64,000 nt of DNA from Candidatus Flemingiibacterium sp. (lineage in GTDB: Bacteria > Bacillota > Clostridia > Oscillospirales > CAG-272): NCBI GenBank assembly GCA_045636145.1, contig JAZTWV010000045.1:5800-69799 (forward strand), written 5' to 3'. Position numbers and translations under genes: made by a program. Each line of letters starts with the position of its first letter. The stretch's first letter is position 1. The notes beneath the pieces are model-generated. The model was not told where the DNA came from and made no database searches. It saw only the letters and a list, made by a program, of their open reading frames with translations. Below, piece after piece: positions 13,820 through 50,109 of the stretch.

Positions 13820-14724
13820 AGCCAACGTCCATAATTTTTCTTATAGTGTCCGTATTTTTGGTTATAGGCGGATTTGCGACCGCAGGCGTTGCAAAGCAGC
13901 TTGCCGCCTCTGAGGGGATTGTACTTACCGATGAAATATCCGAAGAAGCCGGAGGATATATATACAGCTACGAATACGGCAAAGACAGTATCGGAAGAAT
14001 AACCGTAAATGTAAAAGAAGCCGATGTGAATATAATCGGCGGTGCGGAAAAGGCATATGTAGAGCTTGTAAACTTTCCTGAGGGAATGTACGAATTTTCA
14101 AGCTCTAACCGTATACTTTCCATAAAAAACAATACCGACCTGTCTGATATGTCCAATATAGCAAATCTCGCAATGAATTTCAGAGGACTTCGCAGTTTTG
14201 TAGGTTATCTGAATATGAGAAGCCTTCCCAAAACGGTAAATATATATATAAGCGGAGTAAATCCCGTTAAGATAGTTGATTGTCAGATTCAGAGCGGAAA
14301 TGTTACACTCAAAAACTGTGATGCTCCTGCTGATTATAATATTTCCATCGGCGATGGTAATCTCAGCGTGTCTGGAATTGATACAAAGTCCGCACTGAAT
14401 GTCACCGTTGGCAACGGCAATGCGGATATATCGAAATGCGATATTTCAAAGCTGGCTGTGAAGGTTGAAAAAGGAACAGTCACCGCCGAGGCGATGTTTG
14501 ATACCGTGGAAGCGAAAATCGGGAAGGGCGATTTTAACTATAACTGTTACGGAAGTGTGGGACTCACAAAGCTGGCGCTCTTTTCGAGCATCGGCAATAT
14601 CACCCTTGACGGTGTGAAGCACGGTGGATATTTTGAAAGCAGTGATATTCCCACCGACAACATTATAGATATAGACATCGGTGAGGGTGATATAAACATA
14701 GTTACCATGGTTCCGCGTGGCTGA
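13816..14724 (+). CDS. DUF4097 family beta-strand-repeat protein (membrane anchored)
   Basis: TTG start overlapping the upstream stop, RBS AAGGAG, N-terminal TM, repeated (S/G)GN(V/I)T beta motifs. Confidence 0.7.
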   Translation: MKPTSIIFLIVSVFLVIGGFATAGVAKQLAASEGIVLTDEISEEAGGYIYSYEYGKDSIGRITVNVKEADVNIIGGAEKAYVELVNFPEGMYEFSSSNRILSIKNNTDLSDMSNIANLAMNFRGLRSFVGYLNMRSLPKTVNIYISGVNPVKIVDCQIQSGNVTLKNCDAPADYNISIGDGNLSVSGIDTKSALNVTVGNGNADISKCDISKLAVKVEKGTVTAEAMFDTVEAKIGKGDFNYNCYGSVGLTKLALFSSIGNITLDGVKHGGYFESSDIPTDNIIDIDIGEGDINIVTMVPRG

Positions 14725-20667: not shown

Positions 20668-21538
20668 AGCCTTTATCCTCCATTTCAGAGATGAATATTT
20701 CCTCAAGGGTGAGGGGCACGGTTTCGTAGAATGTGGGGCTCTTTTCGATCATAAAAGCGTTTATCTCGTCGATAGTACCCCGAGCTATAAAGGATACAAG
20801 ACTGCCGCGGCGGCTGTAGCCGAGAATGCTCATGGGTGTAAGCTGTGCCGCGTCGAACTCGCCCTCAAATATTGCCTGTACCTTGTGAAGTCCCGATTTC
20901 ATGTCGTCCAGCTCGCGAACAAATAACAGCTCGCCCTTATGAAGCAGACCCACAGTGTCGCAGATGTCCTCCATCTCGCGAAGGCTGTGAGAAGCTATGA
21001 CGGTGGTCATACCGTCTGCCGCTTCCTCAGCGAGTATGCGTTTAACAAGCTGACGCACCACGGGGTCGAGACCGTCAAAGGTTTCGTCGCAGAGAAGATA
21101 TTTTGGTCTTGCCGATATGCCGAGCATGACGGAAGCCTGCTTTTTCATGCCTTTTGAGAAGGTGTTTATCTTACGGTCGCAGTCAAGGGTAAATATACCC
21201 TGAAGCTTTTTAAAGGTTTCGTCGGAAAATCCGCTGTACACGCTTTTATAAAGTGTGCGCATATCATTTATCGTGCAGTGTGGCATAAAATATTGCTCGT
21301 CCGACAGATAAACGATATTTTGTTTAACAAGGGGATTTTCCCAAACGGGAAGCGAGTTGTATGCAACGTCCCCGCAGTCCGGCTTTATAATGCCGCAGAG
21401 AATACGGAGCATTGTAGATTTACCGGAGCCGTTTGAGCCGATAAGTCCGAATATGGAGCCGTCCTTCAAAACGGCATTTACGTTTTCAAGTGAGCGTATT
21501 TTTCCGTAGCTCATGCTGACGTTTTTTATTTCAATCAA
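20642..21538 (-). CDS. ABC transporter ATP-binding protein (YtrB-like)
   Basis: GSNGSGKST, FSKGMKKQ, LCDETFDGLDP, SHSL, LEEIF. Confidence 0.92.
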   Translation of the reverse strand: MIEIKNVSMSYGKIRSLENVNAVLKDGSIFGLIGSNGSGKSTMLRILCGIIKPDCGDVAYNSLPVWENPLVKQNIVYLSDEQYFMPHCTINDMRTLYKSVYSGFSDETFKKLQGIFTLDCDRKINTFSKGMKKQASVMLGISARPKYLLCDETFDGLDPVVRQLVKRILAEEAADGMTTVIASHSLREMEDICDTVGLLHKGELLFVRELDDMKSGLHKVQAIFEGEFDAAQLTPMSILGYSRRGSLVSFIARGTIDEINAFMIEKSPTFYETVPLTLEEIFISEMEDKGYDFSKLNY

Positions 21539-34076: not shown

Positions 34077-34105
34077 TTGACTTTTTCTTGATGTTATGTT
34101 ATTAT
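34077..34105 (+). promoter_or_regulatory. Sigma-A promoter of the 7-gene transporter locus
   Basis: TTGACT(34077)-17-TATTAT(34100) with TGn; implies a ~205-nt leader. Confidence 0.65.
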
Positions 34106-34315
34106 ATTGGTATGAAAAAATCGGCAGGTTCTCCGAAAAACAGGGGAACGGTCGGTTGGTTCAATGCTTTGTGCCGCCATTTTTCGCATCGGTACGCACC
34201 GTTTTTACATTTTTGCCACGCTTAAAACGGTTGCGGCAATGCAGATTGTGAGGGGGCACAGGGTTTTTATGCGATTCTATACCCTTCAAAAGTAATTCTT
34301 GGCAGGAGGAAAAGG

Positions 34316-37282
34316 TTGATGAGAAAAACCAGATTAACACGGTTAACTGCTGTTTTTTTATCATTGATTATGCTCGGCTCCGCATTCAGTACTACAACTG
34401 CTGCGGAAAAAACTGATGATAAGCTGTCGTCCACAGTCGGCTATGATATAGACGATGTGCGCGACCTGCTCAGTGCCGAAGAGTACGCTAAATATGCAGA
34501 AAGAAATGCTGATGTTGCGCGTGCACGAAAGACAATAGTGATAAACGCAGTTGATTACAACAAAGAGGAGACTGATGCCAATGTTGAGCTCCGCGACGGA
34601 GGTATTTATACTCCGGGAAGCGGAAGCGTAACATGGAATGTTGAGATTCCGTCTACGGCGAAATACGCGCTGAAAATAGAATACAACTTCCCGGAGGACG
34701 GAAAATCTACCTCCATTGAGCGCAGACTTCGCATCGACGGTGAATATCCGTTCAAAGGTGCGAGATACCTCTCAATAACAAAAGTGTGGCGCGACGAATA
34801 TGTGATTGCCGACGATGGCAGCGTAGCCTTTGAGACAGACCTTGCAGGCAATGATATCAGACCTCACAAGTACATAACTCCCGAATGGAGTACCTATGTG
34901 GCGAGCGACTCTACAGGTTATGATATTCATCCTTACGAGTTCGTTCTTGAAGAGGGTGAGCATACCATTTCGCTTGAAGCTACCCGTGAGGATCTGATTA
35001 TCAAATCAATCACACTTTATCCGTATGAGGAGCTTCCAACATACGCCGAGATAAAGGCGGAGTATGAGAAAAAGGGCTATAAGCCGGCCGATGGTGCTGA
35101 GCCTATAATTCTTCAGGCAGAGCTTGCGGATGCAACATCTGACAGTACCATCTATCCTGCCAATGACAGAAGCTCCGCGCTTACACAGCCGCAGCATCCC
35201 TCGCTTTCAAAGCTTAACTACATTGGCGGTACGAAATGGCAGAGCGTAGGTCAGTGGATAGAATATTCCTTTACTCCCGACGTATCCGGACTTTATGAGA
35301 TCGTTCCGCGCTACAAGCAGGCTGATCTTTCGGGTATGTACACCTCCCGCCGTATTTACATAAACGGTGAAGTGCCTTTTGAAGATGCGAATTTCCTTCA
35401 GTTCAACTATTCCGATGTATGGCAGACAGCTCCCATCGGAGGTGAGGAAGGCTCTTTCGAATTTTACTTTGAGGCAGGCGAGAAATATACGATTCGCTTT
35501 GAAGTCGTTCTTGGTGATATGAGTGAAATCATCGGACGAGTACAGGCGGCTCTTGACGCTATCAACGCCGATTATCTGAAAATACTTCAGATTACCGGTG
35601 CAGACCCCGATGAATACCGTGACTACAATTTCAGAAATCTTATTCCAGATACCATCAGGAATTTGTATGAACAGTACATTGAGCTTACCAAGATTTCAGA
35701 GATTCTCGTTGAAATCAACGGCGAAAAGGGCAACAATACTGCAACCCTTGATAACATTGCACGTGTGCTCAAGACTATGGCTACGGACGAAGACCAGGTT
35801 GCAAGAAACCTTAGCTCTTTGAAGTCCTATATCGGTACTCTCGGTACATGGCTTAACAATGTAAGAAAGCAGCCGCTTTCCTTTGACTATATTTCCATTC
35901 AACCCTCCGGATCAAAGATGCCTAAGGCTGAGGCTAACTTCTTCGAAGCGGCAGGATTTGAAATCAGCGCGTTTGTAATGTCCTTCTTCACCGATTACTC
36001 CAACCTCGGTGCAACAATTGAGCTTGATGAGTCATCTGTAATTGATGTTTGGACACAGACTGATCGCGACTCCGCTCAGGTTATCCGCGCTCTTTGCGAT
36101 AACTACTTTACATCCACTCAGAACATAGGCGTTAATCTTCGTCTTGTTGCCGCCGGTACTCTGCTTCCCGCAACTCTTGCGGGCATGGGTCCTGATGTAG
36201 CAATGGAGAATGCACAGACAATTCCCGTTCAGTACGCAATTCGTAACGCGGTACAGCCGCTTAACGACTTTGATACATTCGACGAGGTGGTTTCCAGATT
36301 CTCCGAGTCTGCTACTGTTCCGCTTTCACTGTACGGTACTACCTACGGTCTGCCCGAAACTCAGACCTTTAGCATGGTATTCTACCGTAAGGACGTATTT
36401 GCTGAGCTTGGTGTTGATATTCCCAAGACATGGGATGACCTTATGTCGATCGTTCCCGTACTTCAGTACAATAATATGCAGGTAGGTATTCCCGGAAACT
36501 ACGGCGGACTCCAGCTGTTCCTCTATCAGATGGGCGGAGAGCTCTATGCGGATGATGGCATGAGAGTTAACCTTGACTCCAACCTGGCACTTGAAGCTTT
36601 TGATACTATGTGTTCGTACTTCACACAGTATTCCTTCCCGATCACCTATGATGCGGCTAACCGCTTCAGAACCGGTGAAATGCCTCTTATCTTCGCTGAC
36701 TATATTACAATGTACAATCAGCTGACGGTATTCGCAACTGAAATACGCGATCGTTGGGAGTTCGTTCCCTCTATCGGTATGGAGGACGAAGAAGGCAACA
36801 TCAATAACACAGCTATCTCCACTGTTACCGCTATTGTTATGATGAATGGTTGCGAGAAGCGTGAGAATGCTTGGAAGTACATGGATTGGTTTACTACTGC
36901 TGAGACACAGTCAAGCTACGCTAACGAAAAGATTGCTATCGTAGGTCCCGGTTCTATGTATGCAACGGCTAATAAGGAAGCACTTGCCTCCTTGCCGTGG
37001 TCAACTACCGACCTTGATAACATCCTTGCACAGTACAACAATCTGGCGACTATTCCTGAGATGCCCGGCGGATATATTATTTCCCGTTATGTAGGATTTG
37101 CATTCCTTGATGCTTACAACAACCATGCAGATCCCGTTGAAGGACTCCTCGGTTATATTGATGATATGAACAAGGAGATCACCAGAAAGCGTAAAGAGTT
37201 TGATCTTGATACGCTTGAGCTTGGTGAAACTCTTGCTGACAGAGAAGCTAAGAAAAATCAGCAGAGCGAATCCGATAAATAA
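34316..37282 (+). CDS. Giant extracellular solute-binding protein (two CBM-like beta-sandwich domains + helical linker + family-1 SBP domain)
   Basis: Sec signal without lipobox; two repeats of a CBM6/35-like pattern (VTWNVEIP..AKYAL...RIDG; WIEYSF...GLYEI...YING); C-terminal SBP motifs YGLPETQTF.MVFYRKDVF, PKTWDDL, AWKYMDW; RBS AGGAGG. Confidence 0.85.
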   Translation: MMRKTRLTRLTAVFLSLIMLGSAFSTTTAAEKTDDKLSSTVGYDIDDVRDLLSAEEYAKYAERNADVARARKTIVINAVDYNKEETDANVELRDGGIYTPGSGSVTWNVEIPSTAKYALKIEYNFPEDGKSTSIERRLRIDGEYPFKGARYLSITKVWRDEYVIADDGSVAFETDLAGNDIRPHKYITPEWSTYVASDSTGYDIHPYEFVLEEGEHTISLEATREDLIIKSITLYPYEELPTYAEIKAEYEKKGYKPADGAEPIILQAELADATSDSTIYPANDRSSALTQPQHPSLSKLNYIGGTKWQSVGQWIEYSFTPDVSGLYEIVPRYKQADLSGMYTSRRIYINGEVPFEDANFLQFNYSDVWQTAPIGGEEGSFEFYFEAGEKYTIRFEVVLGDMSEIIGRVQAALDAINADYLKILQITGADPDEYRDYNFRNLIPDTIRNLYEQYIELTKISEILVEINGEKGNNTATLDNIARVLKTMATDEDQVARNLSSLKSYIGTLGTWLNNVRKQPLSFDYISIQPSGSKMPKAEANFFEAAGFEISAFVMSFFTDYSNLGATIELDESSVIDVWTQTDRDSAQVIRALCDNYFTSTQNIGVNLRLVAAGTLLPATLAGMGPDVAMENAQTIPVQYAIRNAVQPLNDFDTFDEVVSRFSESATVPLSLYGTTYGLPETQTFSMVFYRKDVFAELGVDIPKTWDDLMSIVPVLQYNNMQVGIPGNYGGLQLFLYQMGGELYADDGMRVNLDSNLALEAFDTMCSYFTQYSFPITYDAANRFRTGEMPLIFADYITMYNQLTVFATEIRDRWEFVPSIGMEDEEGNINNTAISTVTAIVMMNGCEKRENAWKYMDWFTTAETQSSYANEKIAIVGPGSMYATANKEALASLPWSTTDLDNILAQYNNLATIPEMPGGYIISRYVGFAFLDAYNNHADPVEGLLGYIDDMNKEITRKRKEFDLDTLELGETLADREAKKNQQSESDK

Positions 37283-37295
37283 TCTTCCTGCAAAA

Positions 37296-37333
37296 TCCGC
37301 ATACCGCCCTGCATTACAGGGCGGTGGAGCGGG
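37296..37333 (+). other. Intercistronic stem-loop after the SBP gene (mRNA stabiliser or partial terminator)
   Basis: ACCGCCCTG-CATTA-CAGGGCGGT with flanking TCCGC/GCGGG and no U-tract. Confidence 0.6.
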
Positions 37334-37373
37334 TGTAACGGGATAATCAAAATCTGTAAAGGAGACAACACAC

Positions 37374-38330
37374 ATGTCACAGAATGCAGCGGCTGTTAAA
37401 ACGCCGAAGCCGACATCTCGTAAAGACATGACCAAATTTCAGTGGACTATCAAAGAGATTGCCCGTAATAAGACTGCGTATTTTATGATCGCACCTTTTA
37501 TGATTCTCTTCCTTATCTTTACTGTGTTTCCGGTTATTCTTTCGATGATTCTCAGCTTCACAGAGTTTAACCTGCTTGAATTCCCCAAATTCATTTTCAT
37601 GGACAACTATATAAGACTGTTCCTTGACGATGATATATTCCTGACCGCGTGCCAGAATACTCTTGTATTTGCTTCGATCACCGGTCCTGCGTCTTACCTT
37701 ATTTCACTGCTTGTAGCATGGTTCATTAACGAGCTTGCTCCCAAGATCCGTGCGATAGTAACACTTATCTTCTATGCTCCGTCCATTGCAGGTTCGGTAT
37801 ACCTCATTTGGGCAACCCTTTTCTCCGGTGACTCATACGGTTATGTTAATGCATGGCTTATAGAATTTGGACTCATTACTGACCCGATCCTTTGGTTCAG
37901 CGATGCAAACTACGTTATGCCTCTTTGTATCGTGGTTGCTCTTTGGACATCGCTCGGTACTTCCTTCCTCTCATTTATTGCAGGTCTTCAGACTATTGAT
38001 AAATCCCTTTATGAGGCGGGTGCCGTTGACGGCATAAAGAACAGATGGCAGGAGCTTTGGTATATCACCCTTCCGACCATGAAGCCTCAGCTTATGTTCG
38101 GTGCGGTCATGAGTATTACCAATTCATTCAGCTTTGGTGCAGTCGTTACAGCACTTGCGGGCTTCCCTTCAGTTGACTATGCGGCACACACTATCATGCA
38201 TCACCTTGATGACTATGGCGGACAACGATTTGAGGTAGGTTATTCCTCCACAATTGCGGTTATCCTCTTTGTTATCATGGTAGGATGCAACTTGGTAATC
38301 AAGAAACTCTTATCGAAGGTGGGACAATAA
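37374..38330 (+). CDS. Carbohydrate ABC permease (MalF-like), pair 1
   Basis: 6 TM, SFTEFN, NY..LF, EAA loop LQTIDKSLYEAGAVDG, ITLP. Confidence 0.92.
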   Translation: MSQNAAAVKTPKPTSRKDMTKFQWTIKEIARNKTAYFMIAPFMILFLIFTVFPVILSMILSFTEFNLLEFPKFIFMDNYIRLFLDDDIFLTACQNTLVFASITGPASYLISLLVAWFINELAPKIRAIVTLIFYAPSIAGSVYLIWATLFSGDSYGYVNAWLIEFGLITDPILWFSDANYVMPLCIVVALWTSLGTSFLSFIAGLQTIDKSLYEAGAVDGIKNRWQELWYITLPTMKPQLMFGAVMSITNSFSFGAVVTALAGFPSVDYAAHTIMHHLDDYGGQRFEVGYSSTIAVILFVIMVGCNLVIKKLLSKVGQ

Positions 38331-38331
38331 A

Positions 38332-39204
38332 ATGGCAAGATTAAGAACCAGAAAACATAAAGTTGTCCTCAACCGTTCGGTTGGAGGCGACATCGGAATC
38401 AATGTAATGCTTATTCTTCTTGGTGCTTTCATGTTCCTGCCTATGGTTTATGTTATCATGCAGTCGCTGAAGCCCCTTGATGAACTTTGGATGTTCCCCC
38501 CGCGTTTCTATGTAAAGAGCCCCACGCTTAAGAACTTTACCGACCTGTTTAAGCTTATGAGCACCTCGTGGGTACCTTTCTCAAGATACATATTCAACAC
38601 GGTGTTTATTTCGGTTGCAGGTACAGCAGGTAATCTTATGTTCTCGTCGCTTGCGGCTTACGCTCTTGCAAAGATTAAATTCCCCGGACGTAAGTGGATA
38701 TTCGAGGTTATCGTTCTCTCCCTTATGTTCCATACCACAGTTACTGCAATTGCCAACTATCTCACCATGAGTATGCTCCATTGGGTAGATACCTATCTTG
38801 CGATAGTCGTTCCCGCTTGGTGTACTTCGCTTGGTCTGTACCTTATGAAGCAGTTTATGGAGTCTTCGGTTTCCGATGCGGTGCTTGAATCTGCCCGTCT
38901 TGACGGTGCTTCCGAGTTCTATACATTCCTTAAGATTGCGATGCCAATGGTTAAGCCTGCTTGGCTTACCCTCATCATCTACTCCTTCCAGGGCCTTTGG
39001 AACTCCGGTAACTCCATCTACATTTATTCCGAGCAACTTAAGACCTTTAACTACGCAATTAACCAGATCGTAGCCGGCGGTATCGCTCGTGCGGGCGCGG
39101 CGGCAGCTTCTCAGGTAATTATGATGGCTGTGCCGATCTCCGTTTTTGTTATCTCGCAGAGTAACATTATCGAGACGATGGGTTCGTCGGGTATGAAGGA
39201 CTAA
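38332..39204 (+). CDS. Carbohydrate ABC permease (MalG-like), pair 1
   Basis: SLKP, AAYALAK..FPGR, EAA loop VLESARLDGAS, PMVKP. Confidence 0.92.
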   Translation: MARLRTRKHKVVLNRSVGGDIGINVMLILLGAFMFLPMVYVIMQSLKPLDELWMFPPRFYVKSPTLKNFTDLFKLMSTSWVPFSRYIFNTVFISVAGTAGNLMFSSLAAYALAKIKFPGRKWIFEVIVLSLMFHTTVTAIANYLTMSMLHWVDTYLAIVVPAWCTSLGLYLMKQFMESSVSDAVLESARLDGASEFYTFLKIAMPMVKPAWLTLIIYSFQGLWNSGNSIYIYSEQLKTFNYAINQIVAGGIARAGAAAASQVIMMAVPISVFVISQSNIIETMGSSGMKD

Positions 39205-39215
39205 GGAGGGTAATA

Positions 39216-41342
39216 ATGAAGAAACTTACAAAGATTTTTGCCCTCGCAGCGTGTGTCATCCTCGTTCTCGGATGTATGCCGCTCGGTGCTATCACACCTT
39301 ATTCCACCTACACCTATTCTATAGACGGATTTGCACTTATGTCTCCGGATGCTTATGTGCCCGACAGACAGGTTGACTCCGCTTATATGGGGCTTGAAAC
39401 ACCCATTGACGACCCCAGAGACATGGTTGTGGACGGCAGAAAGAATATTTATATTGCAGATGCCGCAAACAACCGTATAGTGGTGCTTGACAGATATTTC
39501 AAGGTTAAGTTTACCATTGACGAGTTTATTAACCAGAACGGTGTTCCGGATGCTCTTAAATCTCCTTCCGGTGTATATGTGACCGATGAGAAGATATACG
39601 TTGCTGATACGGATAATAACCGTATTGTAATGTTTGAGCTTGACGGTACTTTTTACAAGGTTATCAAGGAACCCGATGCGGACGTGTTCCCCGCAGGTTC
39701 CATCTATAAGCCGGTAGCTATTGCAGTTGATGAATACGGCCGTATTTACGTCGTATCTTCCACTACATACATGGGTGTTATTGCTATCAATGAGGATGGT
39801 GTATTCCAGGGCTTTATCGGTGCTCAGAAGGTTACAGTGGATCCCCTTCAGGTTATCTGGAGAAGATTCCAGACCGCTGACCAGAGAGCACGGTCTCAGC
39901 GGTACGTATCTACCGAATTCAACAATATTACTATTGATGAAAACGGATTTATTTACGTTACTACCTCATCTGTAAAAGAGGCCTCACAGCAGGCAGCACT
40001 TCGGGATAAGAGCGGCACATATGCTCCTGTTAAGAAGCTCAACACCGCAGGCTCGGATATCATGAAGCGTAACGGCTTTTTCGGTCCTGGCGGCGAGGTT
40101 AACGTAACTAACCTCTCTACCGCAGAGATCACAGGTCCTTCCAAGATCATCGACGCAGCTGTAGGACCGGAAAACACATGGTCAATAATCGACGAAAAGC
40201 GTTCCAAGATCTACACATACGATGAAGACGGAAATCTCCTCTTTATCTTTGGTGATAAGGGTCAGCAGCTCGGTAATATTCAGTCTGTTGAGGCTATCGC
40301 TTACCTTGACAATGATATTTTGATTCTTGACAAGACTGCCGACAATATTACGGTATTCAGACGCACCGAATACGGCGATTTGCTCCTCGATGCTATCAGA
40401 AATACCAATGAGCGCAACTACGACACAACTATTAACTATTGGACAGAGATTCTTAAGAGAAACAACAACTTCGATACTGCATATATCGGCATTGGTAAGA
40501 GCCTTTACAGAAGTGCCGAGTATGAGGAGTCTCTTTCGTACTACAAGTCCGCTTATGATACCGAAAACTATTCTGAATCCTTTAAGGAAATCAGAAAAGA
40601 GTGGATTTCCAACTATATTCTTCTTATTCCGCTCTTTGCAATAGTATTTATTGTACTTTTCGTGCTTTTCAACAAGTATGCTGCAAATCTCAACAAGAAA
40701 ACTCAGCTTAAGAAAGGAAGAAAGACCTTCTGGGAAGAGATTATCTACGCTTTCCACCTCATCCTGCATCCGTTTGACGGATTCTGGGATCTGAAGCATG
40801 AGCAGCGCGGTTCAATGAGAGCTGCGTTTGTATGGCTGGCGATAGCTATCCTTACATTCTTCTATCAGGGCGTTGGAACCGGTTATATATTCAATCCTCG
40901 TCAGGCTTCAACAACTATTCTGGTGCAGATAACCGCAGTTGTAGTTCCTGTAATCCTTTGGGTTGTTGCTAACTGGTGTCTCACCACTCTGTTTGACGGT
41001 GAGGGCAGTCTTAAGGATATTTTCATAGCAACCTGCTATGCACTTGTTCCCCTGCCTATACTTATCATTCCTTCAGTTCTCATTTCCAATATCGCACTTT
41101 CATCTGAGGCAGCCATCATCAATCTTCTTGTAAGTTTTGCATTTGTATGGTGCGGACTTCTCCTCTTCTTCGGTATGATGGTAACTCATGACTACACATT
41201 CTCAAAGAACGTGCTCACATCGGTCGGTACTATAATCGGTATGGCGATCATCATGTTTATCGGTATTCTGTTCTCGACACTGCTTGCGAAGATCGTAAGC
41301 TTTGTTTCCAGCATCATTACCGAGATCGCGTTCCGTATGTAA
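39216..41342 (+). CDS. NHL-repeat beta-propeller + TPR + Yip1-domain membrane protein
   Basis: Signal peptide, NHL repeats (IYIADAANNRIVV, IYVADTDNNRIV, AVDEYGRIYV), TPR-like AYIGIGKSLY, a TM helix, then Yip1-like ILHPFDGFWDLK plus 5 TM. Confidence 0.82.
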   Translation: MKKLTKIFALAACVILVLGCMPLGAITPYSTYTYSIDGFALMSPDAYVPDRQVDSAYMGLETPIDDPRDMVVDGRKNIYIADAANNRIVVLDRYFKVKFTIDEFINQNGVPDALKSPSGVYVTDEKIYVADTDNNRIVMFELDGTFYKVIKEPDADVFPAGSIYKPVAIAVDEYGRIYVVSSTTYMGVIAINEDGVFQGFIGAQKVTVDPLQVIWRRFQTADQRARSQRYVSTEFNNITIDENGFIYVTTSSVKEASQQAALRDKSGTYAPVKKLNTAGSDIMKRNGFFGPGGEVNVTNLSTAEITGPSKIIDAAVGPENTWSIIDEKRSKIYTYDEDGNLLFIFGDKGQQLGNIQSVEAIAYLDNDILILDKTADNITVFRRTEYGDLLLDAIRNTNERNYDTTINYWTEILKRNNNFDTAYIGIGKSLYRSAEYEESLSYYKSAYDTENYSESFKEIRKEWISNYILLIPLFAIVFIVLFVLFNKYAANLNKKTQLKKGRKTFWEEIIYAFHLILHPFDGFWDLKHEQRGSMRAAFVWLAIAILTFFYQGVGTGYIFNPRQASTTILVQITAVVVPVILWVVANWCLTTLFDGEGSLKDIFIATCYALVPLPILIIPSVLISNIALSSEAAIINLLVSFAFVWCGLLLFFGMMVTHDYTFSKNVLTSVGTIIGMAIIMFIGILFSTLLAKIVSFVSSIITEIAFRM

Positions 41343-41364
41343 TAACAGGATAGGAGTTATAGTA

Positions 41365-44300
41365 ATGAAAAAATTCAGATTATTATCGGCGTTCCTGTCT
41401 GTTGTTATGGCGATGGGAATCCTTACAGCCGCAATGCCGGTCACAGCGACTGCTTCAAATACCGAGGCCCTAGTTCCCGGTATTGATGATGAGACCGGCG
41501 AACCTACAATTGATTATCTGACTCAAATCTATGAAACTCCCGAGGAAAAGCTTGCTACAATGACAAAATACCTTGAAAAAGGTGATATGGCACTGTATGT
41601 TGAGCCTGTTTCCGGTGAGGTTGCATATGTAAACAACAAGACCGGTCAGATACTCTTCTCAAATCCTTATGATGTTTCACAGACCGGTGCTGCAAAGGCT
41701 ACAAAGCAGGAGCTTCTCTCTCAGATCGCTGTTAAATACACCGATAATTCTTCAGAGATTGAAATGTTCAGCTTTGTTGAAGCTTGCCAGAGAGGTCAGA
41801 TCAACGTAAAGAAGATCAAGAACGGTGTTCGCGTTGAGTACACGATGGGTCGTGAGGAGACCCGTAAGCTTGTACCAAAGCAGATTAAGCGAGAGCGTTT
41901 CGAAGAGCTTATTCTTGCGAACATTCCCGAGGGCGGTACAAAGCAGCGCCTTCTTGCATACTACACTCTTCAGGATCCGTATGATAATAGCCTTACAGAG
42001 CGTGGAAAGCGTGAGCTCGTTGCGGCTTTCCCGATATGTAGTCAGATGGCTATCTATGTATTTGATCCGGGTGCAACAGACCGTGAGCTTAACCTTGTTG
42101 AGGGTTGGATCAAGACTTACTGCCCCGAATATTCATGGAGTCATCTTGAAGAGGACCACACAATCACCGGCTATGTAGGTACAGACAAGGCACCGGTTCT
42201 GTTCAGACTTTCTCTTGAGTATAAGCTTGATGATGACGGAACTCTTGATGTGCGTCTTCCCGCAAACGGTATCCGTTTCGATGAAAGCGCATATCAGCTC
42301 ACCTATATCAGTATGCTTCCTTGGTTCGGAGCAGGTTCTTCGGATTGGAAGGGTTACACCTTTATTCCTGACGGTTCCGGTACGTTAGTTCGCTTTGAGG
42401 ATGTTAAAAACAAACCTCTTACCCTTACCGGTAAAATCTACGGTCAGGACTATGCTTATCAGGAAGTAGGCGGACAAAATAAGGAGGTTATGCGTCTCCC
42501 TGTATACGGTATAGTGGAGAGCGCGGAATTTAATCCTCCGGCACTTACCGCAGAGCAGATTGAGACCGGATTCGAGTATAAGGCTCCCGAAGGCAAGCAG
42601 AGCAACGGTTTTATTGCAATCATCGAGGAAGGTGACTCCCTCGCCGAGATCAGTACCGAGCACGGCGGAAACCTTCACAAGTACAATACGGTTTACACTA
42701 CATTCTACCCGAGACCTAAGGATACATACAACCTGGCAGATGCTATTTCGGTAGGTGCGAATGCTACTTATACTGTTGTTTCCGAGCGTAAGTATACCGG
42801 AAGCTACCGCATAAAGTATATCATGCTTACAAGCGATGAGACTGCTGAGGCTGTTGGCCTTAAGAATTACTACGAGGACAGCTATGTAGGTATGGCAAAG
42901 GCATACAGAGATTATCTCATAGCCGAAGGCGTTCTTACCGAGATCGAAGATCCTAAGGACAGCATTCCGCTCTACATTGAGTCCTTCGGTGCTATAGAGA
43001 CTATCGAAAAGGTGCTTTCCATTCCTGTTACTGTGCTTAAGCCTCTCACCACATTCGAAGACCTTAAGACAATGTATACCGCACTCACTGAGGCAGGCAT
43101 TACCAACATCAATTACAAGTTGACAGGTTATGCTAACGGCGGTATGAATGACACTGCGCCTTACCATGTTAAGTTTGAAAAGGTAGTGGGCGGTAATGAC
43201 GGATTTACTGATTTTGTTGCTTATGCAAATGAGAATGATATTGGCGTATATCCGGACTTCGATTTTGCAAACGTAACTAAGTTCGAGTCGTTTGACGGTA
43301 TTTCCAATGGAAAACATCTTGTAAAGACTATGGATGGTCGTTATACCACCAAGCGTTTCTACGATTCTACTCTTCAGTCATTCCAGCGCGGATATTCCTT
43401 GGCGTTGTCTCCGGCGGTTTACGATTATCTTTTTGAGAATTTCAACAAGGAATTTGCTAAGCTTGTTCCGAACGGAATTTCGGTTTCTACACTTGGTACT
43501 GACCTTAACTCCGACTTCAACGATGATGAACCGTACAACCGCGAGGATACCAAGGCATTTACCAAAGACCTCCTTGCTGATATCGAAGAGGCTTACGGTG
43601 ATGTTATGGTAGACGGCGGCAATATGTACGCTATCAAGTATGCAGATCATATTATTGGCGTATCTCTTGACTCCAGCCGTTATTCCAATGCAAGTGAGGC
43701 TGTTCCTTTCACAGGACTTGTGCTCCACGGATGCGTGGAATTTGCCGGAAATGCCATCAACATGGCAGGTGATATGCAGTATGAGCTTCTCAAGGCAATT
43801 GAGAACGGTGCGTCGCTGTATTTCACCCTTTCCATGCAGAACACTTCACTTCTTAAGGAAGATGTTGAATTCAACAAGTATTATTCTGTTGCATTTGACA
43901 TCTGGAAGGATGAGGTTGTGAATGTATACACGACCCTTAACAATGCTCTTGCAGATCTTCAGGATAAGCAGATCGTTGACCATGAGTTCCTTATAGGCGA
44001 GCGAGTTCCTTCCGAAGAGGAAGCTGAGGCAGACAGAATTGCAGCCGAGGAGGCAGCACTACGTGCAGAGGAAGAAGAAAAGCTTGCAGCAGATAAGGCT
44101 GAAAAAGCACAGAAGCTTGCTGACCGTCTTGCAGCTCTCAAGGCAGCAGAGACAGGTGAAGCTGCTTCTGCAGGTCCTACCGTAGTAGGCGGCACTTCGG
44201 ATGCTTTCAATAAGGAAGACGAAGTTGATTCCAATGCTTATGCCTATACCAAGTATACATCTGATGACGGACGTATCGTAAAGGTCACCTACGAGGGCGG

Positions 44301-44400
44301 CAAAGCATTTATCCTTAACTACAATAACTTTGAGATCACTGTCGAGGATGGCGGAAAGACTTACACCATCGGCGCTCTTGATTTCGTAAAGGTTAAATAA
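41365..44400 (+). CDS. Large secreted protein, DUF5696-like (possibly glycoside-hydrolase-like fold)
   Basis: RBS AGGAG, signal peptide, LPWFGAG, FIPDGSG.L, LPVYG, SYVGMAKAYRDYL, GYANGG, VPF..LVLHG motifs that I recognise as DUF5696-type. Confidence 0.75.
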   Translation: MKKFRLLSAFLSVVMAMGILTAAMPVTATASNTEALVPGIDDETGEPTIDYLTQIYETPEEKLATMTKYLEKGDMALYVEPVSGEVAYVNNKTGQILFSNPYDVSQTGAAKATKQELLSQIAVKYTDNSSEIEMFSFVEACQRGQINVKKIKNGVRVEYTMGREETRKLVPKQIKRERFEELILANIPEGGTKQRLLAYYTLQDPYDNSLTERGKRELVAAFPICSQMAIYVFDPGATDRELNLVEGWIKTYCPEYSWSHLEEDHTITGYVGTDKAPVLFRLSLEYKLDDDGTLDVRLPANGIRFDESAYQLTYISMLPWFGAGSSDWKGYTFIPDGSGTLVRFEDVKNKPLTLTGKIYGQDYAYQEVGGQNKEVMRLPVYGIVESAEFNPPALTAEQIETGFEYKAPEGKQSNGFIAIIEEGDSLAEISTEHGGNLHKYNTVYTTFYPRPKDTYNLADAISVGANATYTVVSERKYTGSYRIKYIMLTSDETAEAVGLKNYYEDSYVGMAKAYRDYLIAEGVLTEIEDPKDSIPLYIESFGAIETIEKVLSIPVTVLKPLTTFEDLKTMYTALTEAGITNINYKLTGYANGGMNDTAPYHVKFEKVVGGNDGFTDFVAYANENDIGVYPDFDFANVTKFESFDGISNGKHLVKTMDGRYTTKRFYDSTLQSFQRGYSLALSPAVYDYLFENFNKEFAKLVPNGISVSTLGTDLNSDFNDDEPYNREDTKAFTKDLLADIEEAYGDVMVDGGNMYAIKYADHIIGVSLDSSRYSNASEAVPFTGLVLHGCVEFAGNAINMAGDMQYELLKAIENGASLYFTLSMQNTSLLKEDVEFNKYYSVAFDIWKDEVVNVYTTLNNALADLQDKQIVDHEFLIGERVPSEEEAEADRIAAEEAALRAEEEEKLAADKAEKAQKLADRLAALKAAETGEAASAGPTVVGGTSDAFNKEDEVDSNAYAYTKYTSDDGRIVKVTYEGGKAFILNYNNFEITVEDGGKTYTIGALDFVKVK

Positions 44401-44419
44401 GAAAAGAGAGGTGTATTAA

Positions 44420-45394
44420 ATGAATAGCGAAGCAAAGCTCACTAAGGCCGGCGCTGTAAAAAAGCGTAAGCGTATAGCCTCTCTTGATGCACGCAAGGCG
44501 CGTGCAGGTTGGGTGTTCGTACTTCCGTTCGTGCTCAGCTTTATCATCATCTATCTTCCCATAGTAATCGACTCTATAAAGTACAGCTTTAACAAGCTTA
44601 AGGTTGGACAGGGCGGCGGATATACGCTGCAGTTTGTAGGCTGGGAAAACTATCAGGATGCTCTCTTTGTAGACCCTAAGTTTGTACAGACTCTTACTTC
44701 CGGTATACAGCAGCTCATATTTGATATTCCTGCGATCGTAATTTTCTCGCTCTTCGTTGCGGTTCTTCTGAATCAGAAGATGGCAGGACGTGCAGCGTTC
44801 CGTGCGATCTTCTTCATTCCGGTTATTATTTCCACAGGTATTGTTGATAATATCGACCAGTCCAACACCATGCTCGACTACATGAACACTACCGAAGAGG
44901 GTATCAATGACGGTTCGGGACAGAATGCCACGGCAGAAATATTGTCAGCAGTGGATATTGAGCGGCTTTTCGAAAACATGAAGGTAGGTACTGAGCTGGT
45001 TCAATACGTTGTAAATATGGTTAACAACATTTACGACATTATTAACCGTTCAGGTGTACAGATGCTTATTTATCTTGCAGGTCTTCAGTCCATTTCTCCT
45101 GCTATCTACGAGTCTTGTTCCATAGACGGTGCAAGTGCTTGGGAGACATTCTGGAAAGTAACCTTCCCGATGATAAGCCCCATGATCCTCGTAAATGCTA
45201 TCTACACGGTTATTGACTCGTTCACATCGCAGTCAAATACGGTTATGACTTACATCGCTGCCGTATATGATACTGCGGGCGGTAACGTACTCAGCTCGGC
45301 AATGTCTTGGATCTACTTCTTGATAGTTCTGGTCATTATCGGCTTGGTAGCGGCACTTCTCAGTGCATACGTCTTCTATCAGAAACGCGATTAA
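44420..45394 (+). CDS. Carbohydrate ABC permease (MalF-like), pair 2
   Basis: FVGWENY, FRAIFFIPVII, EAA loop LQSISPAIYESCSIDGASAWE, VTFP. Confidence 0.9.
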   Translation: MNSEAKLTKAGAVKKRKRIASLDARKARAGWVFVLPFVLSFIIIYLPIVIDSIKYSFNKLKVGQGGGYTLQFVGWENYQDALFVDPKFVQTLTSGIQQLIFDIPAIVIFSLFVAVLLNQKMAGRAAFRAIFFIPVIISTGIVDNIDQSNTMLDYMNTTEEGINDGSGQNATAEILSAVDIERLFENMKVGTELVQYVVNMVNNIYDIINRSGVQMLIYLAGLQSISPAIYESCSIDGASAWETFWKVTFPMISPMILVNAIYTVIDSFTSQSNTVMTYIAAVYDTAGGNVLSSAMSWIYFLIVLVIIGLVAALLSAYVFYQKRD

Positions 45395-45407
45395 GGAGGG
45401 ATAAGAT

Positions 45408-46466
45408 ATGAATTCTCAACAGACATCCAATGCTCCCCGCGTTATGAAGGAGAGCAAAAACAAAATCAGAGTTGAGTTTGAAAGAACCCCTCTGAAAGAG
45501 CGTCTCAAGGCGAAATTCCTCAACATGAACTTCTTTAAGAATGTTGTTGTAAGAGTTTTCACCTACGTTCTTCTTATCGGTATTTCCTATGTCATCCTTT
45601 TCCCGTTCTTCGCTAAGATCTCCGGCTCTTTCATGAGCAAAGAGGACTTCGTTGATGTAACGGTAAAGCTGATTCCGAAGTATCCCACACTTGATACCTA
45701 TAAGGCTATCATAAATGAAAACGGTTATTTTACGGCATTGTTCAACACGTTCACCCTTTCGGTGCTCTGCGGACTGATTCAGACATTTGTATGCTGTGTT
45801 ATCGGCTACGGTCTTGCAAAGTTTAAGTTCAAGGGTAATAAGCTGATATTCTTCCTCGTAATCTTTACGATGGTTATTCCTCACAGAACTCTTCAGCTTT
45901 CAATGTTCATGAAGTTCAGATACTTTGATATTCTCGGTATCTTCGACTTACTTGGCGGCGGCGTGTTTGAATGGCTCCGTATACTTCCGTTCTCCTCGCT
46001 TAACCTTAACAATACCTATTGGCCGCTTGCCCTTCTGTCATTTGGCGGACTTGCATTCAAGAACGGACTTTATATCTTCATGATGCGTCAGTTCTTCCAC
46101 GGTGTGCCGGATGAACTTGAAGAGTCGGCTTACATCGACGGATCGGGCGTGTTCAGAACATTCCTTCAGATCATTCTTCCGCTTTCCGTTCCGATGATGA
46201 TCACCATCTTCCTGTTTGCTTTCTCATGGCAGTGGACGGATAACTTCTATACTACCGTGTTCTTTACAAAGACAGGTATGACGCTTATGCCGGATATTGT
46301 CGGCGTGCCCACATCTCTTGATACCCAGTATGCAGCTCAGAATCTTTATGAGTCTGCTATCAGAAATACTTGCGGTCTGCTCATCCTGCTTCCTCTGCTT
46401 ATTATGTATGTGTTCTTACAGAGATATCTTATCGGTGGTATCGAGCGTTCCGGTATCGTTGGTTAA
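45408..46466 (+). CDS. Carbohydrate ABC permease (MalG-like), pair 2
   Basis: GYGLAKFKFKG, MRQFF, EAA loop VPDELEESAYIDG, FSWQWTD, GIERSGIVG. Confidence 0.9.
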   Translation: MNSQQTSNAPRVMKESKNKIRVEFERTPLKERLKAKFLNMNFFKNVVVRVFTYVLLIGISYVILFPFFAKISGSFMSKEDFVDVTVKLIPKYPTLDTYKAIINENGYFTALFNTFTLSVLCGLIQTFVCCVIGYGLAKFKFKGNKLIFFLVIFTMVIPHRTLQLSMFMKFRYFDILGIFDLLGGGVFEWLRILPFSSLNLNNTYWPLALLSFGGLAFKNGLYIFMMRQFFHGVPDELEESAYIDGSGVFRTFLQIILPLSVPMMITIFLFAFSWQWTDNFYTTVFFTKTGMTLMPDIVGVPTSLDTQYAAQNLYESAIRNTCGLLILLPLLIMYVFLQRYLIGGIERSGIVG

Positions 46467-46514
46467 TCAAACAAAAATAACTGCTGTACATTGTACAGCA
46501 GTCCAGACTGTCGA

Positions 46515-46543
46515 AAAAAGTCACCCCGAGGGGTGGCTTTTTT
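46515..46543 (+). terminator. Intrinsic terminator of the transporter locus
   Basis: AAAAAGTCACCCC-GA-GGGGTGGCTTTTTT. Confidence 0.8.
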
Positions 46544-46562
46544 GCATGAAATATGGTATAAT

Positions 46563-47952: not shown

Positions 47953-49686
47953 TTATTCGTCAGTAACATATACCGACACATTGTCGGGAAAATTATATCC
48001 AGATGGGGAAAGTCCCACAAATTCCACTGTTTCAAGATTTTCAAAATATCCGAAAGAGGATGCATCGAACTCGGTGGAGGAAAGTATCCAAGGCTCAAGC
48101 AGACCTGCCGCACCGAGATGTTCAATAAGCTTGTTTATTTCACGTTCTGTGGAAAATGGATCAAGCATATACACACATCCGTACTTTTCAAGATCGGGGA
48201 TGTCAGCAAGCATCACATTTTTGTCGCTTTGTGTAAGTTCTTCGCTATTAAGATCCTTTAGGCAGTAGTACGCTGCAAAACGACCTGCGATTTTGTCATC
48301 CGGTACGGTGTCTGCATATTTTTCGATTCCGGGCATGATTATTTGCTCCATGTAGTTGACCTTTGCTAATGAAGGCAACGGGGAAGTGAAGCGGTTGTCG
48401 CCGTTTACTGTGAAATGTACCGCAGTCTGCCCGGTTGAAAGGGTCTTTGCTTCAAGTCGAACAGAGGTTATGCCGTCTACCATTTCCGGCGTTATGTAAT
48501 CTTCAGAGTCAAGGCCGTAATATGCTCTGACCATTATATCTACGGGCGGTGAGAGCTTTATGGCTGTTCCGAGAGTGTTTGTATCAATCGCGGAACAGGA
48601 GGAAAGTGCAAGCATACTGCCTATTGCTGAAATAACCGTGAAAAGTGCAATAAGCGCAACGGTGGGATAATCTTTTTTGAAATTCTTCATATTCGCATAT
48701 CTCCTTTTCAAAAATGTCATTCCGGACGGCTGATTTAAAAACAGACCGCCGCTTACCTTTTCACGAAAAACAGATTTGCAGTTATCGGAACAGCTTTGTG
48801 CCAAGTCTATAATAGCTTCCATATACAGCGAGCTTATGCCTGTGCCGTATCCCATGATTACGCTGTAATCGCAGGATAATTCACAGTCTTCAATGAATGT
48901 GTTCCTTACACGGTATGAAGTGGGATTGAACCAGTGCACACATACAACCAAAAAGCAGAACAGCCTTGATGCAGTATCGAAGCGTTTGATATGCGTAAGC
49001 TCGTGTGTAAGCACACATTCAAGCTTGCGGCTGTCAAGACCGGTACAGTTTTGGCTTATATACAGAGTCGGTTTCAGTATTCCGCCTGTACAGGGGGATG
49101 ACAGAAGATCAATATCAAACATACGCACCTCGACCTTGCGACGAAGATGCATTTTTTCCTGAAGGCATTCAAATGTCTGAAGTATGTGCTTATCTTGACA
49201 TACTGATGAATGGCATCTCATAAGCCGGTGTGTCTTTACGTGCTTTAAGACTGTACTTGCCACGCTGAACAGCGCACCTGACAACCATAGGATAAATAAC
49301 ACACCTGCGGCATCATCAGCGTATTCTGCGCTTGCCGCAGCCATGCGGCGAAGCTTCATTACGATTAAATTTTTGACAGTCAGTGCCTTGTTTTCAATCG
49401 GAGATGAACTTTTGTCCTGCGTAGTGTTGGCATCAGAATATTCGACCTGTCCGCTTATATTATTTGAGGCGGTGATGCCGGCGGTGTCAGTATAACTAAA
49501 GTGGTCAGTAATCGCAGGAACATGGAAACGGAGCGGAAGTATGGATATAATGAGAATTATTATCCAAAAGGGATACATAATGCCTTCCCGTCCGCGAAGC
49601 TTAGTACTGCGAATCAAAAATGCCGCACTGCTGATAAAAGTGAACATGGCGCTGAGCACAAGCAGGCTCAAAATGAAGCTGAACAT
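47953..49686 (-). CDS. BlaR1/MecR1-like M56 metallopeptidase with non-PBP C-terminal domain
   Basis: N-terminal TMs, SPCTGGILKP, HELTHIKRFD zinc motif, HWFNP, ELSCD, LKRR; downstream of a BlaI-like gene. Confidence 0.88.
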   Translation of the reverse strand: MFSFILSLLVLSAMFTFISSAAFLIRSTKLRGREGIMYPFWIIILIISILPLRFHVPAITDHFSYTDTAGITASNNISGQVEYSDANTTQDKSSSPIENKALTVKNLIVMKLRRMAAASAEYADDAAGVLFILWLSGALFSVASTVLKHVKTHRLMRCHSSVCQDKHILQTFECLQEKMHLRRKVEVRMFDIDLLSSPCTGGILKPTLYISQNCTGLDSRKLECVLTHELTHIKRFDTASRLFCFLVVCVHWFNPTSYRVRNTFIEDCELSCDYSVIMGYGTGISSLYMEAIIDLAQSCSDNCKSVFREKVSGGLFLNQPSGMTFLKRRYANMKNFKKDYPTVALIALFTVISAIGSMLALSSCSAIDTNTLGTAIKLSPPVDIMVRAYYGLDSEDYITPEMVDGITSVRLEAKTLSTGQTAVHFTVNGDNRFTSPLPSLAKVNYMEQIIMPGIEKYADTVPDDKIAGRFAAYYCLKDLNSEELTQSDKNVMLADIPDLEKYGCVYMLDPFSTEREINKLIEHLGAAGLLEPWILSSTEFDASSFGYFENLETVEFVGLSPSGYNFPDNVSVYVTDE

Positions 49687-49701
49687 TGCGCCTCACCGCC
49701 C

Positions 49702-50109
49702 TTAGTTGCTGTCATTCTCTATTTCACGGCGAAGCTCTGAAATATCTTCCTTGCTGAGTATGCCGTCATCAAAGAGTGCACAGATGAGTCCTTTGGTGTT
49801 GTTTTTATAGACCGTAGCAACGAAATCAGCCGCCGCCTTACGTTTATACTCTGTCTCGTCGGCAAGAACTATCGCACAGTTAGTTCGTCCATGCTTTTCG
49901 AGACGAATAAACCCCTTATTTTGAAGTCTTGTAATAAGCGTAAGCACGGTTGTGAGAGCCAGGTGTCCGATCTCATCCGGGAAAGCGGCAAGAAGTGCAC
50001 CGGCGTGAATATCCTTCACTCCCTGCTTGTCTAAATCCCAGATAAGCTGCATGATCTGTAATTCCGATTCGGGAAGCTTTGTAAAGTTTTTCTTTGTGGG
50101 TTGCAGCAT
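49702..50109 (-). CDS. BlaI/MecI/CopY family transcriptional repressor
   Basis: LPESELQIMQLIW, TTVLTLITRLQNKGF, LSKEDISELR. Confidence 0.92.
   Translation of the reverse strand: MLQPTKKNFTKLPESELQIMQLIWDLDKQGVKDIHAGALLAAFPDEIGHLALTTVLTLITRLQNKGFIRLEKHGRTNCAIVLADETEYKRKAAADFVATVYKNNTKGLICALFDDGILSKEDISELRREIENDSN

Follow-up and report, generated by a model that had tools for sequence, protein, structure and literature searches.

Two permease pairs and undescribed accessory proteins in a CUT1-type importer locus of Candidatus Flemingiibacterium

The glycan importers of Gram-positive gut and biomass-degrading bacteria are generally held to be simple, each consisting of one binding protein and one permease pair. 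What, then, is the task of a locus that holds two permease pairs together with three large proteins and no ATPase? Such a locus is found at positions 34316-46466 of a 64,000-nucleotide stretch of Candidatus Flemingiibacterium sp. (assembly GCA_045636145.1, contig JAZTWV010000045.1, positions 5,800 to 69,799). This whole stretch is called the window here, and all coordinates refer to it. The source assembly has 1.74 Mb and is 84.6% complete, and its nearest relatives are gut metagenome-assembled genomes (MAGs) labelled Candidatus Flemingiibacterium or Clostridia. An earlier note, made from the letters of the window, had described seven co-directional genes and proposed that they form one polysaccharide uptake machine with two channels. 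All seven open reading frames (ORFs) are indeed present on the plus strand, and they fill the region with intergenic gaps of 1 to 91 bases. They are listed below with the ATPase that is discussed with them.

34319-37282, plus strand: giant binding protein (Pfam SBP_bac_8/SBP_bac_1; model, fold and profile matches)
37374-38330, plus strand: permease F1, MalF/UgpA-like (Pfam BPD_transp_1, NCBIfam, EAA-type loop)
38332-39204, plus strand: permease G1, MalG/UgpE-like (Pfam BPD_transp_1, NCBIfam, EAA-type loop)
39216-41342, plus strand: NHL/TPR/Yip1 membrane protein, 708 residues (Pfam NHL and Yip1, profile matches)
41365-44400, plus strand: DUF5696 protein, 1011 residues (Pfam DUF5696, model, GH129-like fold)
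44420-45394, plus strand: permease F2 (Pfam BPD_transp_1, NCBIfam, EAA-type loop)
45408-46466, plus strand: permease G2 (Pfam BPD_transp_1, NCBIfam, EAA-type loop)
15032-16147, plus strand: MalK/MsmK-type ATPase (ABC_tran, OB_MalK, TOBE_2)

The locus splits into two separable modules. Module A comprises the giant binding protein and the permeases F1/G1, and module B comprises the NHL/TPR/Yip1 membrane protein, the DUF5696 protein and the permeases F2/G2. Together they belong to a widespread and conserved CUT1 importer family with undescribed accessory subunits. The reading that we favour, with modest confidence, is that the modules are two cooperating CUT1-type importers, which share a trans-encoded MalK/MsmK-type ATPase and of which the second carries new accessory subunits. 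Of the proposal of one machine with two channels, the conserved unit linked to polysaccharides is thereby retained, while two cooperating importers fit the data better than a single machine.

Conservation and separability of the two modules

Fifty DUF5696 loci from about 35 genomes were compared, comprising 10 MAG records and 40 stretches from 25 genomes. Their six-frame ORFs were scored with hidden Markov models built from first-round orthologues, and gene order was called from scores above 150. The Yip1 gene lies directly upstream of the DUF5696 gene in 50/50 loci, with a weak match in one of them (L087), and the F2-G2 pair lies directly downstream in 48/50, the other two loci (L006 and L079) stopping at contig ends. 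The Yip1/NHL and DUF5696 genes were thus never seen apart from a permease pair in the 50 loci; their independent occurrence is what the earlier note had named as fatal to its proposal.

The same coupling is visible at the level of whole genomes. In a sample of 401 genomes of the phylum, DUF5696 was found in 32 (E <= 1e-100) and the Yip1 membrane family in an identical set of 32 (E <= 1e-10). The N-terminal part of the giant binding protein was found in 33 genomes (E <= 1e-24), 31 of which are among the 32 DUF5696 genomes. The two extra genomes (G108 and G171) carry their match on contigs of 3.8 and 4.3 kb, and the DUF5696 genome without a giant binding protein (G350) has a divergent copy. The locus of this divergent copy (L087, G350:C60; DUF5696 E 3.4e-104, Yip1 E 2.7e-15) possibly represents an older or reduced version of module B. 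The named carriers include Caldicellulosiruptor (bescii, acetigenus, hydrothermalis), Paenibacillus, Lachnospiraceae, Oscillospiraceae and Acutalibacteraceae, and the carrier annotations read "hypothetical" or DUF5696 throughout.

The arrangement of the two modules is less strict. The seven-gene order is present in 26/50 loci, nine of them with a split Yip1 gene, and in one more locus (L089) with G1 in two frames. Module B precedes module A in 4/50 loci and stands alone in 14/50, one of which (L011) is cut at its start; the remaining 5/50 are cut by contig ends or odd. At 12 further loci, located by matches to the giant binding protein, module A stands alone as SBP-F1-G1 in four, all from one genus, and is joined to module B in six, while two contigs are too short to judge. 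Genomes also carry unequal, unlinked copies of the two modules. The seven genes are therefore not one obligate block, and the strict co-occurrence and order for which a check had been proposed hold only in part, with the seven-gene order in 27/50 loci and the modules also found separately. These counts fit two importers that are co-selected and usually co-transcribed.

The alternative that the seven proteins build one obligate surface supercomplex feeding two channels, a Gram-positive "utilisome", draws on the prevalence of the seven-gene order against only four permuted loci, on the 31/33 strong matches to the N-terminal part of the binding protein that fall in DUF5696 genomes, and on one interface predicted inside module B (see below). 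Against it stand the 14 loci of module B alone, the 4/12 of module A alone, and the unequal, unlinked copies per genome. Classical binding proteins also often flank module B (22/112 ORFs), which suggests that this module can work with a binding protein of its own. As the modules are also found apart, we regard a single seven-protein utilisome as quite improbable.

The neighbours of orthologous loci point to the use of polysaccharides. Outside the window the cassette is flanked by carbohydrate-active enzymes (CAZymes) of the glycoside hydrolase families GH26 (with or without the carbohydrate-binding module CBM35), GH10, GH38, GH35/42, GH5, GH31 and GH106, as well as by a PF10091 "glycoamylase", an apiosidase, a pectate lyase and a LacI regulator. 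In directed scans, classical binding proteins of 430-490 residues adjoin the cassette at many loci. Counting the two closest ORFs on either side in 36 loci, with two large ones omitted, gave 112 ORFs, among them SBP_bac_1 (22), beta-helix (4), GH42 (3), LacI (3), and GH10, GH3, GH43 and GH5 (2 each), with some AraC-type regulators. The proposed search for adjacent glycoside hydrolases has thus found many families beside orthologous loci, and none beside the copy in the window. Co-occurrence and CAZyme neighbours bear out the idea of a conserved functional unit linked to polysaccharide use, and the context of orthologous loci suggests that the locus transports oligosaccharides.

In the window, the locus is preceded by housekeeping genes (a radical-SAM enzyme, FGAM synthase, RNase H and NifS/NifU-like genes) and followed by the genes of ribosomal L21 and Prp, past which a BlaR1/BlaI pair lies on the opposite strand (47953-50109, minus strand; a BlaR1-type M56 peptidase sensor and a BlaI-type repressor). 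The source assembly holds three SBP_bac_1 matches in all. The locus in the window adjoins neither a CAZyme nor a classical binding protein.

Five genomes of 2.2-3.0 Mb (G044, G054, G088, G172 and G236) have at least six Yip1 copies each. The modules of these genomes adjoin CAZymes of pectin, hemicellulose and glucan type, and their expansion recalls the paralogy of polysaccharide utilisation loci.

Binding protein, permeases and the Yip1-type membrane protein

Pfam SBP_bac_8/SBP_bac_1 covers only residues 590-872 of the 988-residue ORF translation of the binding protein (E 8.9e-21). The likely start is the ATG at 34319 (987 residues) and not the TTG at 34316, because the TTG reads TTA in 4/4 relatives and an AGGAGG lies at 34304-34309. 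An AlphaFold model built from 17 orthologues (pLDDT 86.0, pTM 0.82) begins with an N-terminal hydrophobic helix and a low-confidence linker, which are followed by two beta-sandwiches (about 74-235 and about 264-398), a helical bundle (402-517) and a CUT1 oligosaccharide-binding fold (522-960). The binding fold resembles CUT1 oligosaccharide-binding proteins in Foldseek (E 1.8e-18, TMt up to 0.83) and 5ysb in VIA-align (Z 34.9, root-mean-square deviation (rmsd) 2.8, 370 aligned). VIA-align of the whole model is saturated by this fold and is uninformative for the N-terminal domains.

For these domains a profile of residues 62-400 was searched. It matched the second sandwich to the CBM35 of a cycloisomaltooligosaccharide glucanotransferase (5x7g, E 3.8e-8) and the first to the CBM35 of CsxA (2vzp, E 7.8e-5), with weaker CBM6 and CBM35 matches ranking below. 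In a relaxed scan the Pfam CBM_35 model gave 15.6 bits on the N-terminal pieces, under its cut-off of 28, and a protein atlas returned clusters without names and GH115_C at 0.78, graded as a lead only. By profile comparison, both N-terminal sandwiches can be described as CBM35-like. A lipoprotein anchor was considered and rejected, as no cysteine follows the hydrophobic helix; from its sequence, the protein would be helix-anchored or secreted.

In the family f16 (G006, G057, G099, G139, G175), proteins of 530-560 residues resemble the giant binding protein solely in its CBM-like N-terminal part (E 1e-7 to 1e-12). Weak matches to DUF5696 come in addition from 664-residue ORFs of G006 and G175, and DUF6259 is found in the ORF of G006 (L067) and in L068 from another family. 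The f16 proteins with DUF6259-type ORFs may represent a distant, differently built relative of the system.

All four permeases match Pfam BPD_transp_1 (29-53 bits, cut-off 26.4), and NCBIfam adds a weak likeness to UgpA/UgpE and MalF/MalG and nothing further. The EAA loops reported earlier for all four can be read as E-A-G, E-S-C, E-S-A and E-S-A variants, followed by x-x-D-G. Permease F2 has a long extracellular loop at about 145-205. A recent tandem duplication of the pairs was rejected because of their low identity, F1 and F2 sharing only a 59-residue stretch at 32% and G1 and G2 27% over 169 residues.

In a Pfam scan of the seven proteins neither an ATPase, a glycosidase family nor a regulator was found, in agreement with the first description of the locus, which must be qualified for the GH129-like fold of the DUF5696 protein. 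The ATPase at 15032-16147, about 18 kb upstream of the locus, is the sole OB_MalK match above cut-off in the assembly and is likely to energise the locus in trans. In Anaerocellum bescii, a single MsmK is described as powering the oligosaccharide ABC (ATP-binding cassette) transporters (PMC12838199). Since the CUT1 systems of this group share an MsmK-type ATPase, a sugar locus that lacks its own is nothing unusual, and the absence that had been pointed out stands without being a peculiarity. Near the ATPase, four ORFs (501, 304, 302 and 723 residues) have no Pfam match at E 0.001; they lie at 10497-12002 (minus strand), 12905-14724 (plus strand) and 18535-20706 (minus strand). The end of an ABC_tran ATPase gene (20642-21538) is overlapped by the 723-residue ORF, a possible permease of that ATPase.

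The 708-residue protein of module B matches Pfam Yip1 (PF04893; E 5e-16, 59.5 bits, cut-off 28.6) and NHL (E 4.9e-11). Its hydrophobic segments comprise a signal-like helix (7-25), a single helix (467-485) and five helices (536-691), the last of which make up the Yip1 domain (about 514-691). The ectodomain resembles NHL propellers (E 1.6e-14) and the extracellular sensor domain of PknD (E 2.2e-12), and residues about 399-454 match consensus TPR proteins (E 1.2e-8). In the nine loci with a split gene, the NHL part has about 500 residues and the Yip1 part about 210.

The likeness to PknD raises the alternative that module B serves mainly for sensing or signalling at the surface, with a PknD-like propeller reporting the presence of glycan, and some of the flanking genes encode AraC- or LacI-type regulators. 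Pfam detects no kinase, HAMP, GGDEF or DNA-binding domain in the seven proteins, however, and the F2/G2 pair, conserved in 48/50 loci, keeps its EAA-type ATPase-docking loops. A sensor is accordingly a very remote explanation, and an accessory subunit of an importer is the role that we prefer for the Yip1-type protein.

A modelled complex is consistent with such a role. F2, G2 and residues 455-708 of the Yip1 protein, each with a 40-row alignment, gave a score of 0.69, compared with 0.03 for the best of three controls. The mark used for this score was reached by 58/80 solved complexes and by 2/110 mismatched pairs, a calibration that is only rough for three chains with self-built alignments. 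At least 80% of contacts agree between runs, and the partner pLDDT is at least 73. In the predicted interface, the last helix and tail of the Yip1 protein (residues about 673-707) lie against the first helix of G2 (residues 51-65 and 85-91) and the long outer loop of F2 (residues 178-204 and 241-249). We know of no solved complex of a Yip1 protein with an importer, so that a pass derived from a memorised structure seems unlikely. The AlphaFold check that had been suggested for the locus, carried out for F2, G2 and the Yip1 membrane part, thus supports docking of the Yip1 membrane part on permease pair 2 at the level of a prediction.

Fold and catalytic site of the DUF5696 protein

The protein that had been called DUF5696-like is a true member of the family (PF18952; E 2.8e-149, 498.9 bits, cut-off 25.6). 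Its ORF opens at 41302, and the start is placed at the ATG 41365, behind an AGGAG at 41352-41356. The model (pLDDT 83.6, pTM 0.79) shows an N-terminal hydrophobic helix, an N-terminal beta-sandwich, a (beta/alpha)8 barrel and a C-terminal beta-sandwich; the N-termini of some orthologues are signal-peptide-like and not anchor-like. Most orthologues (740-960 residues) lack an insertion at residues 884-957 (window 44014-44235), which consists of a clade-specific single helix of about 47 residues, rich in Ala, Glu and Lys (884-930), and a disordered stretch ahead of the C-terminal beta-sandwich.

A profile of 25 orthologues matches the GH129-like 3,6-anhydro-D-galactosidase 5opq (E 2.2e-9) and the GH129 enzyme NagBb (E 4.9e-7). 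Foldseek aligned the model with the same pair over all three domains (E 5.2e-28), and VIA-align gave Z 27.9 for 5opq_D (rmsd 4.1, 585 aligned) and Z 27.8 for the other GH129 enzyme (572 aligned), followed by GH101 (Z 19.3), GH13 (Z 18.4) and GH36 (Z 17.8). For the modelled protein the assignment of a GH129-like fold is solid. The GH129 Pfam model (PF11308) does not match the DUF5696 protein, for which only DUF5696 is listed, and finds nothing in the genome of the window at E <= 1e-20. GH129 genes are rare in the genome sample (4/401), and the weak matches of the DUF5696 Pfam model in other genomes are GH13 amylases, a GH129 member and DUF6259 proteins.

Does the fold still carry a catalytic site? 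In ZGAL_3152, Asp486 is described as the equivalent of the conserved catalytic Asp435 of NagBb, and the second catalytic residue of NagBb as not conserved (PMC5698469). An alignment of four GH129 sequences, tied to the NagBb numbering by a very weak phmmer stretch, holds an invariant Asp in the motif aligned to NagBb Asp435 and an invariant Glu ahead of a GGN motif. It was aligned to the DUF5696 alignment with hhalign (probability 87%, E 4.1e-6, 324 columns), and the GGN motif is common to both. The nucleophile Asp, at the end of barrel strand 4, falls on Ser706 of the window protein, and the next invariant Asp falls on Thr709, where 8/25 orthologues have Asp. The third Asp falls on Asp717, which is conserved in 23/25. 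The acid/base Glu, which we take to be Glu478 of NagBb, falls on Asp750, a position with D or E in 14/25 orthologues. No acidic residue is found in residues 704-712 of the window protein, and small alignment shifts therefore do not restore the canonical nucleophile. As judged from this alignment, the DUF5696 protein seems to have lost it.

It would follow that the "trimming enzyme" once considered for pair 2 is doubtful. The possibility of an active enzyme, an extracellular glycosidase from a new GH129-related family that trims captured oligosaccharides to a length importable by F2/G2, with the Yip1/NHL protein as its membrane holder, still deserves to be weighed. It is consistent with the GH129-like fold over about 585 residues, with the common GGN motif, with Asp750 at the acid/base position, and with a conserved acidic and polar set (D336, D362, D717, N753, N799, E813) that marks a conserved site; D336 is found in 22/25 orthologues, D362 in 23/25 with Glu in the other two, and E813 in 25/25. 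Non-canonical sites also exist, as the ZgGH129-like enzyme is described as departing from the catalytic pair of NagBb (PMC5698469). On the other side are Ser706 and the acid-free stretch around it, the inconstancy of positions 709 and 750, and the constancy of the partners next to CAZymes of mannan, xylan, pectin and N-glycan type, which is odd for a linkage-specific exo-enzyme. Furthermore, the catalytic half of the barrel alone (a profile of 10 sequences) finds no glycosidase among PDB sequences (best E 0.14). An active glycosidase is thus a possible but doubtful explanation.

A binding or gating role is favoured by the differing CAZyme sets beside the same partners and by the absence of the canonical nucleophile. 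We put the chance of a glycan-binding pseudo-glycosidase, scaffold or gate at about even, and that of a linkage-specific enzyme clearly lower.

Mechanism, operon signals and comparison with known systems

If the modules are two cooperating importers, the giant binding protein of module A would be tethered to the membrane and hold a polymer or long oligosaccharide through its two CBM35-like domains, and its C-terminal binding fold would load F1/G1. In module B, the Yip1-type protein would be an extra integral subunit against F2/G2, above which a cap or receptor would be formed by its outward NHL propeller, its TPR stalk and the GH129-shaped DUF5696 protein. The NHL/TPR part may retain the DUF5696 protein at the surface, and the DUF5696 protein would act as a glycan-binding pseudo-glycosidase or scaffold rather than as a canonical retaining glycosidase. 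In this scheme we infer the roles of the NHL propeller and of DUF5696, the substrate, and the contact between modules A and B.

Several points weigh against the scheme of two cooperating importers. Modules A and B also occur alone, and their cooperation is deduced from co-occurrence only. The sampled genomes are kin, and the counts overstate the number of independent events. The flanking genes of the window's own locus include no CAZyme and no classical binding protein. The specificity of the Yip1 protein for pair 2 is taken from gene order, a single interface having been modelled. The reading of the catalytic site comes from the profile alignment and its very weak phmmer bridge and not from a three-dimensional superposition; Asp750 does stand at the acid/base position, and D717, D336, D362 and E813 could form a non-canonical active site.

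The signals around the operon are as follows.

34077-34105, plus strand: sigma-70-like promoter (TTGACT, 17 nt, TATTAT, with TG; 10/12 matches, conserved in relatives)
34112-34318, plus strand: structured 5' leader (minimum free energy -66.4 kcal/mol, z -2.77)
46520-46545 (about), no strand assigned: G+C hairpin between an A-run and a T-run (sequence reading and terminator scan)

The promoter that had been proposed at this site is present and kept in all four relatives whose sequence covers the stretch; promoter-like sites as a whole are not enriched in the region (23 found, 26.3 expected from shuffles). Four related genomes conserve the leader, which spans about 200 nt from the promoter to the first gene. 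Its predicted fold has 61 pairs, 11 of them with a compensatory change among five sequences, and ends in an invariant hairpin in which CCUUC is paired to the ribosome-binding site of the binding-protein gene. No Rfam family matches the leader, which is a candidate cis-regulatory RNA of the operon. The terminator placed earlier at 46515-46543 corresponds to the G+C hairpin and T-run at about 46520-46545, which is terminator-like in both directions, and a second hairpin lies at 46479-46503. The codon choice, which had suggested high expression, is only moderately supportive; on a weak index, which was seeded by two presumed glycolytic genes and drifted to a self-derived top set, the seven genes fall between the 75th and 90th percentiles of 1272 ORFs. 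A search of sequencing runs listed six holders of DNA data and none of RNA data.

The literature search agrees with the earlier statement that no mechanistic description is known, as no paper was found on DUF5696 or on this gene combination, supplementary data sets not being covered. A search for Caldicellulosiruptor with Yip1 also found no paper, and the cassette is not mentioned in PMC8579813 as far as its main text goes.

The conserved cassette adds three large surface proteins to the scheme of simple importers in 32/401 genomes of the phylum, and the link of its accessory proteins with the permeases is as strict as that between SusD and SusC. If these proteins bind or gate glycans, this would explain the handling of long or branched oligosaccharides, give DUF5696 a function, and provide a bacterial case in which a transporter has recruited a glycosidase fold as one of its subunits. 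A wider claim would be an undescribed Gram-positive class of glycan importers, in which a type I permease pair is joined to NHL-Yip1 and to a GH129-derived pseudo-glycosidase as receptor or gate, and polymer-sized or branched glycans, once captured by a CBM-bearing giant binding protein, are threaded or passed on at the membrane. We consider this class unlikely at present; if real, it would be a functional answer of Firmicutes to the SusC/D utilisome, with at least six paralogues in some gut species. Anaerocellum/Caldicellulosiruptor bescii, a genetically tractable carrier, makes the reading directly testable.

Compared with CUT1 importers of the MalEFGK2 type, the locus shares a binding protein with the SBP_bac_1/8 fold and BPD_transp_1 permeases with EAA-type loops. 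In the CUT1 system Athe_0595-0598 of Anaerocellum bescii the ATPase is likewise encoded elsewhere (MsmK, Athe_1803), as described in PMC12838199, and here it is probably shared too. In contrast to CUT1 systems, this locus has two permease pairs, a 987-residue binding protein whose binding fold is preceded by two CBM35-like domains and a helical bundle, a binding-protein N-terminus without a lipobox cysteine, and invariant Yip1/NHL and DUF5696 proteins linked to permease pair 2.

A bacterial Yip1-family membrane protein as an accessory of an ABC transporter has a precedent in YknWXYZ of Bacillus subtilis, where YknW is described as the fourth component (PMC4338810). However, YknYZ is a MacB-type exporter with a membrane-fusion protein, whereas the partner here is a type I importer permease pair, and the Yip1 domain is fused or adjacent to a large NHL/TPR ectodomain.

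With the GH129 enzymes NagBb of Bifidobacterium bifidum and DagB/ZGAL_3152 of Zobellia galactanivorans, the DUF5696 protein shares the three-domain architecture and the GGN motif. It differs in the Ser at the nucleophile Asp, in an acid/base position that is not conserved throughout the family, in its N-terminal membrane or signal helix, and in its constant place between the Yip1 gene and a permease pair.

A glycosidase fold beside a transporter is also known from the SLC3 heavy chains 4F2hc and rBAT, which are ancillary subunits of heteromeric amino-acid transporters. They have a single N-terminal membrane helix and a glycosidase-fold ectodomain, which in 4F2hc lies over the transporter and lacks catalytic residues. 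Unlike the present system, they are eukaryotic, of the GH13 and not the GH129 type, and paired with an SLC7 secondary transporter; the match of the DUF5696 profile to 4F2hc is non-significant (E 2.5).

The analogy to SusC/SusD, finally, holds in logic only and does not extend to homology, as no parts are shared. According to Pfam, the seven proteins include neither a TonB-dependent barrel nor a SusD-like lipoprotein, and ABC permeases carry out transport across a single cytoplasmic membrane. What the two systems have in common is the coupling of surface glycan-binding modules to a transporter and the expansion of paralogues, with at least six Yip1 copies in five genomes, beside differing CAZymes.

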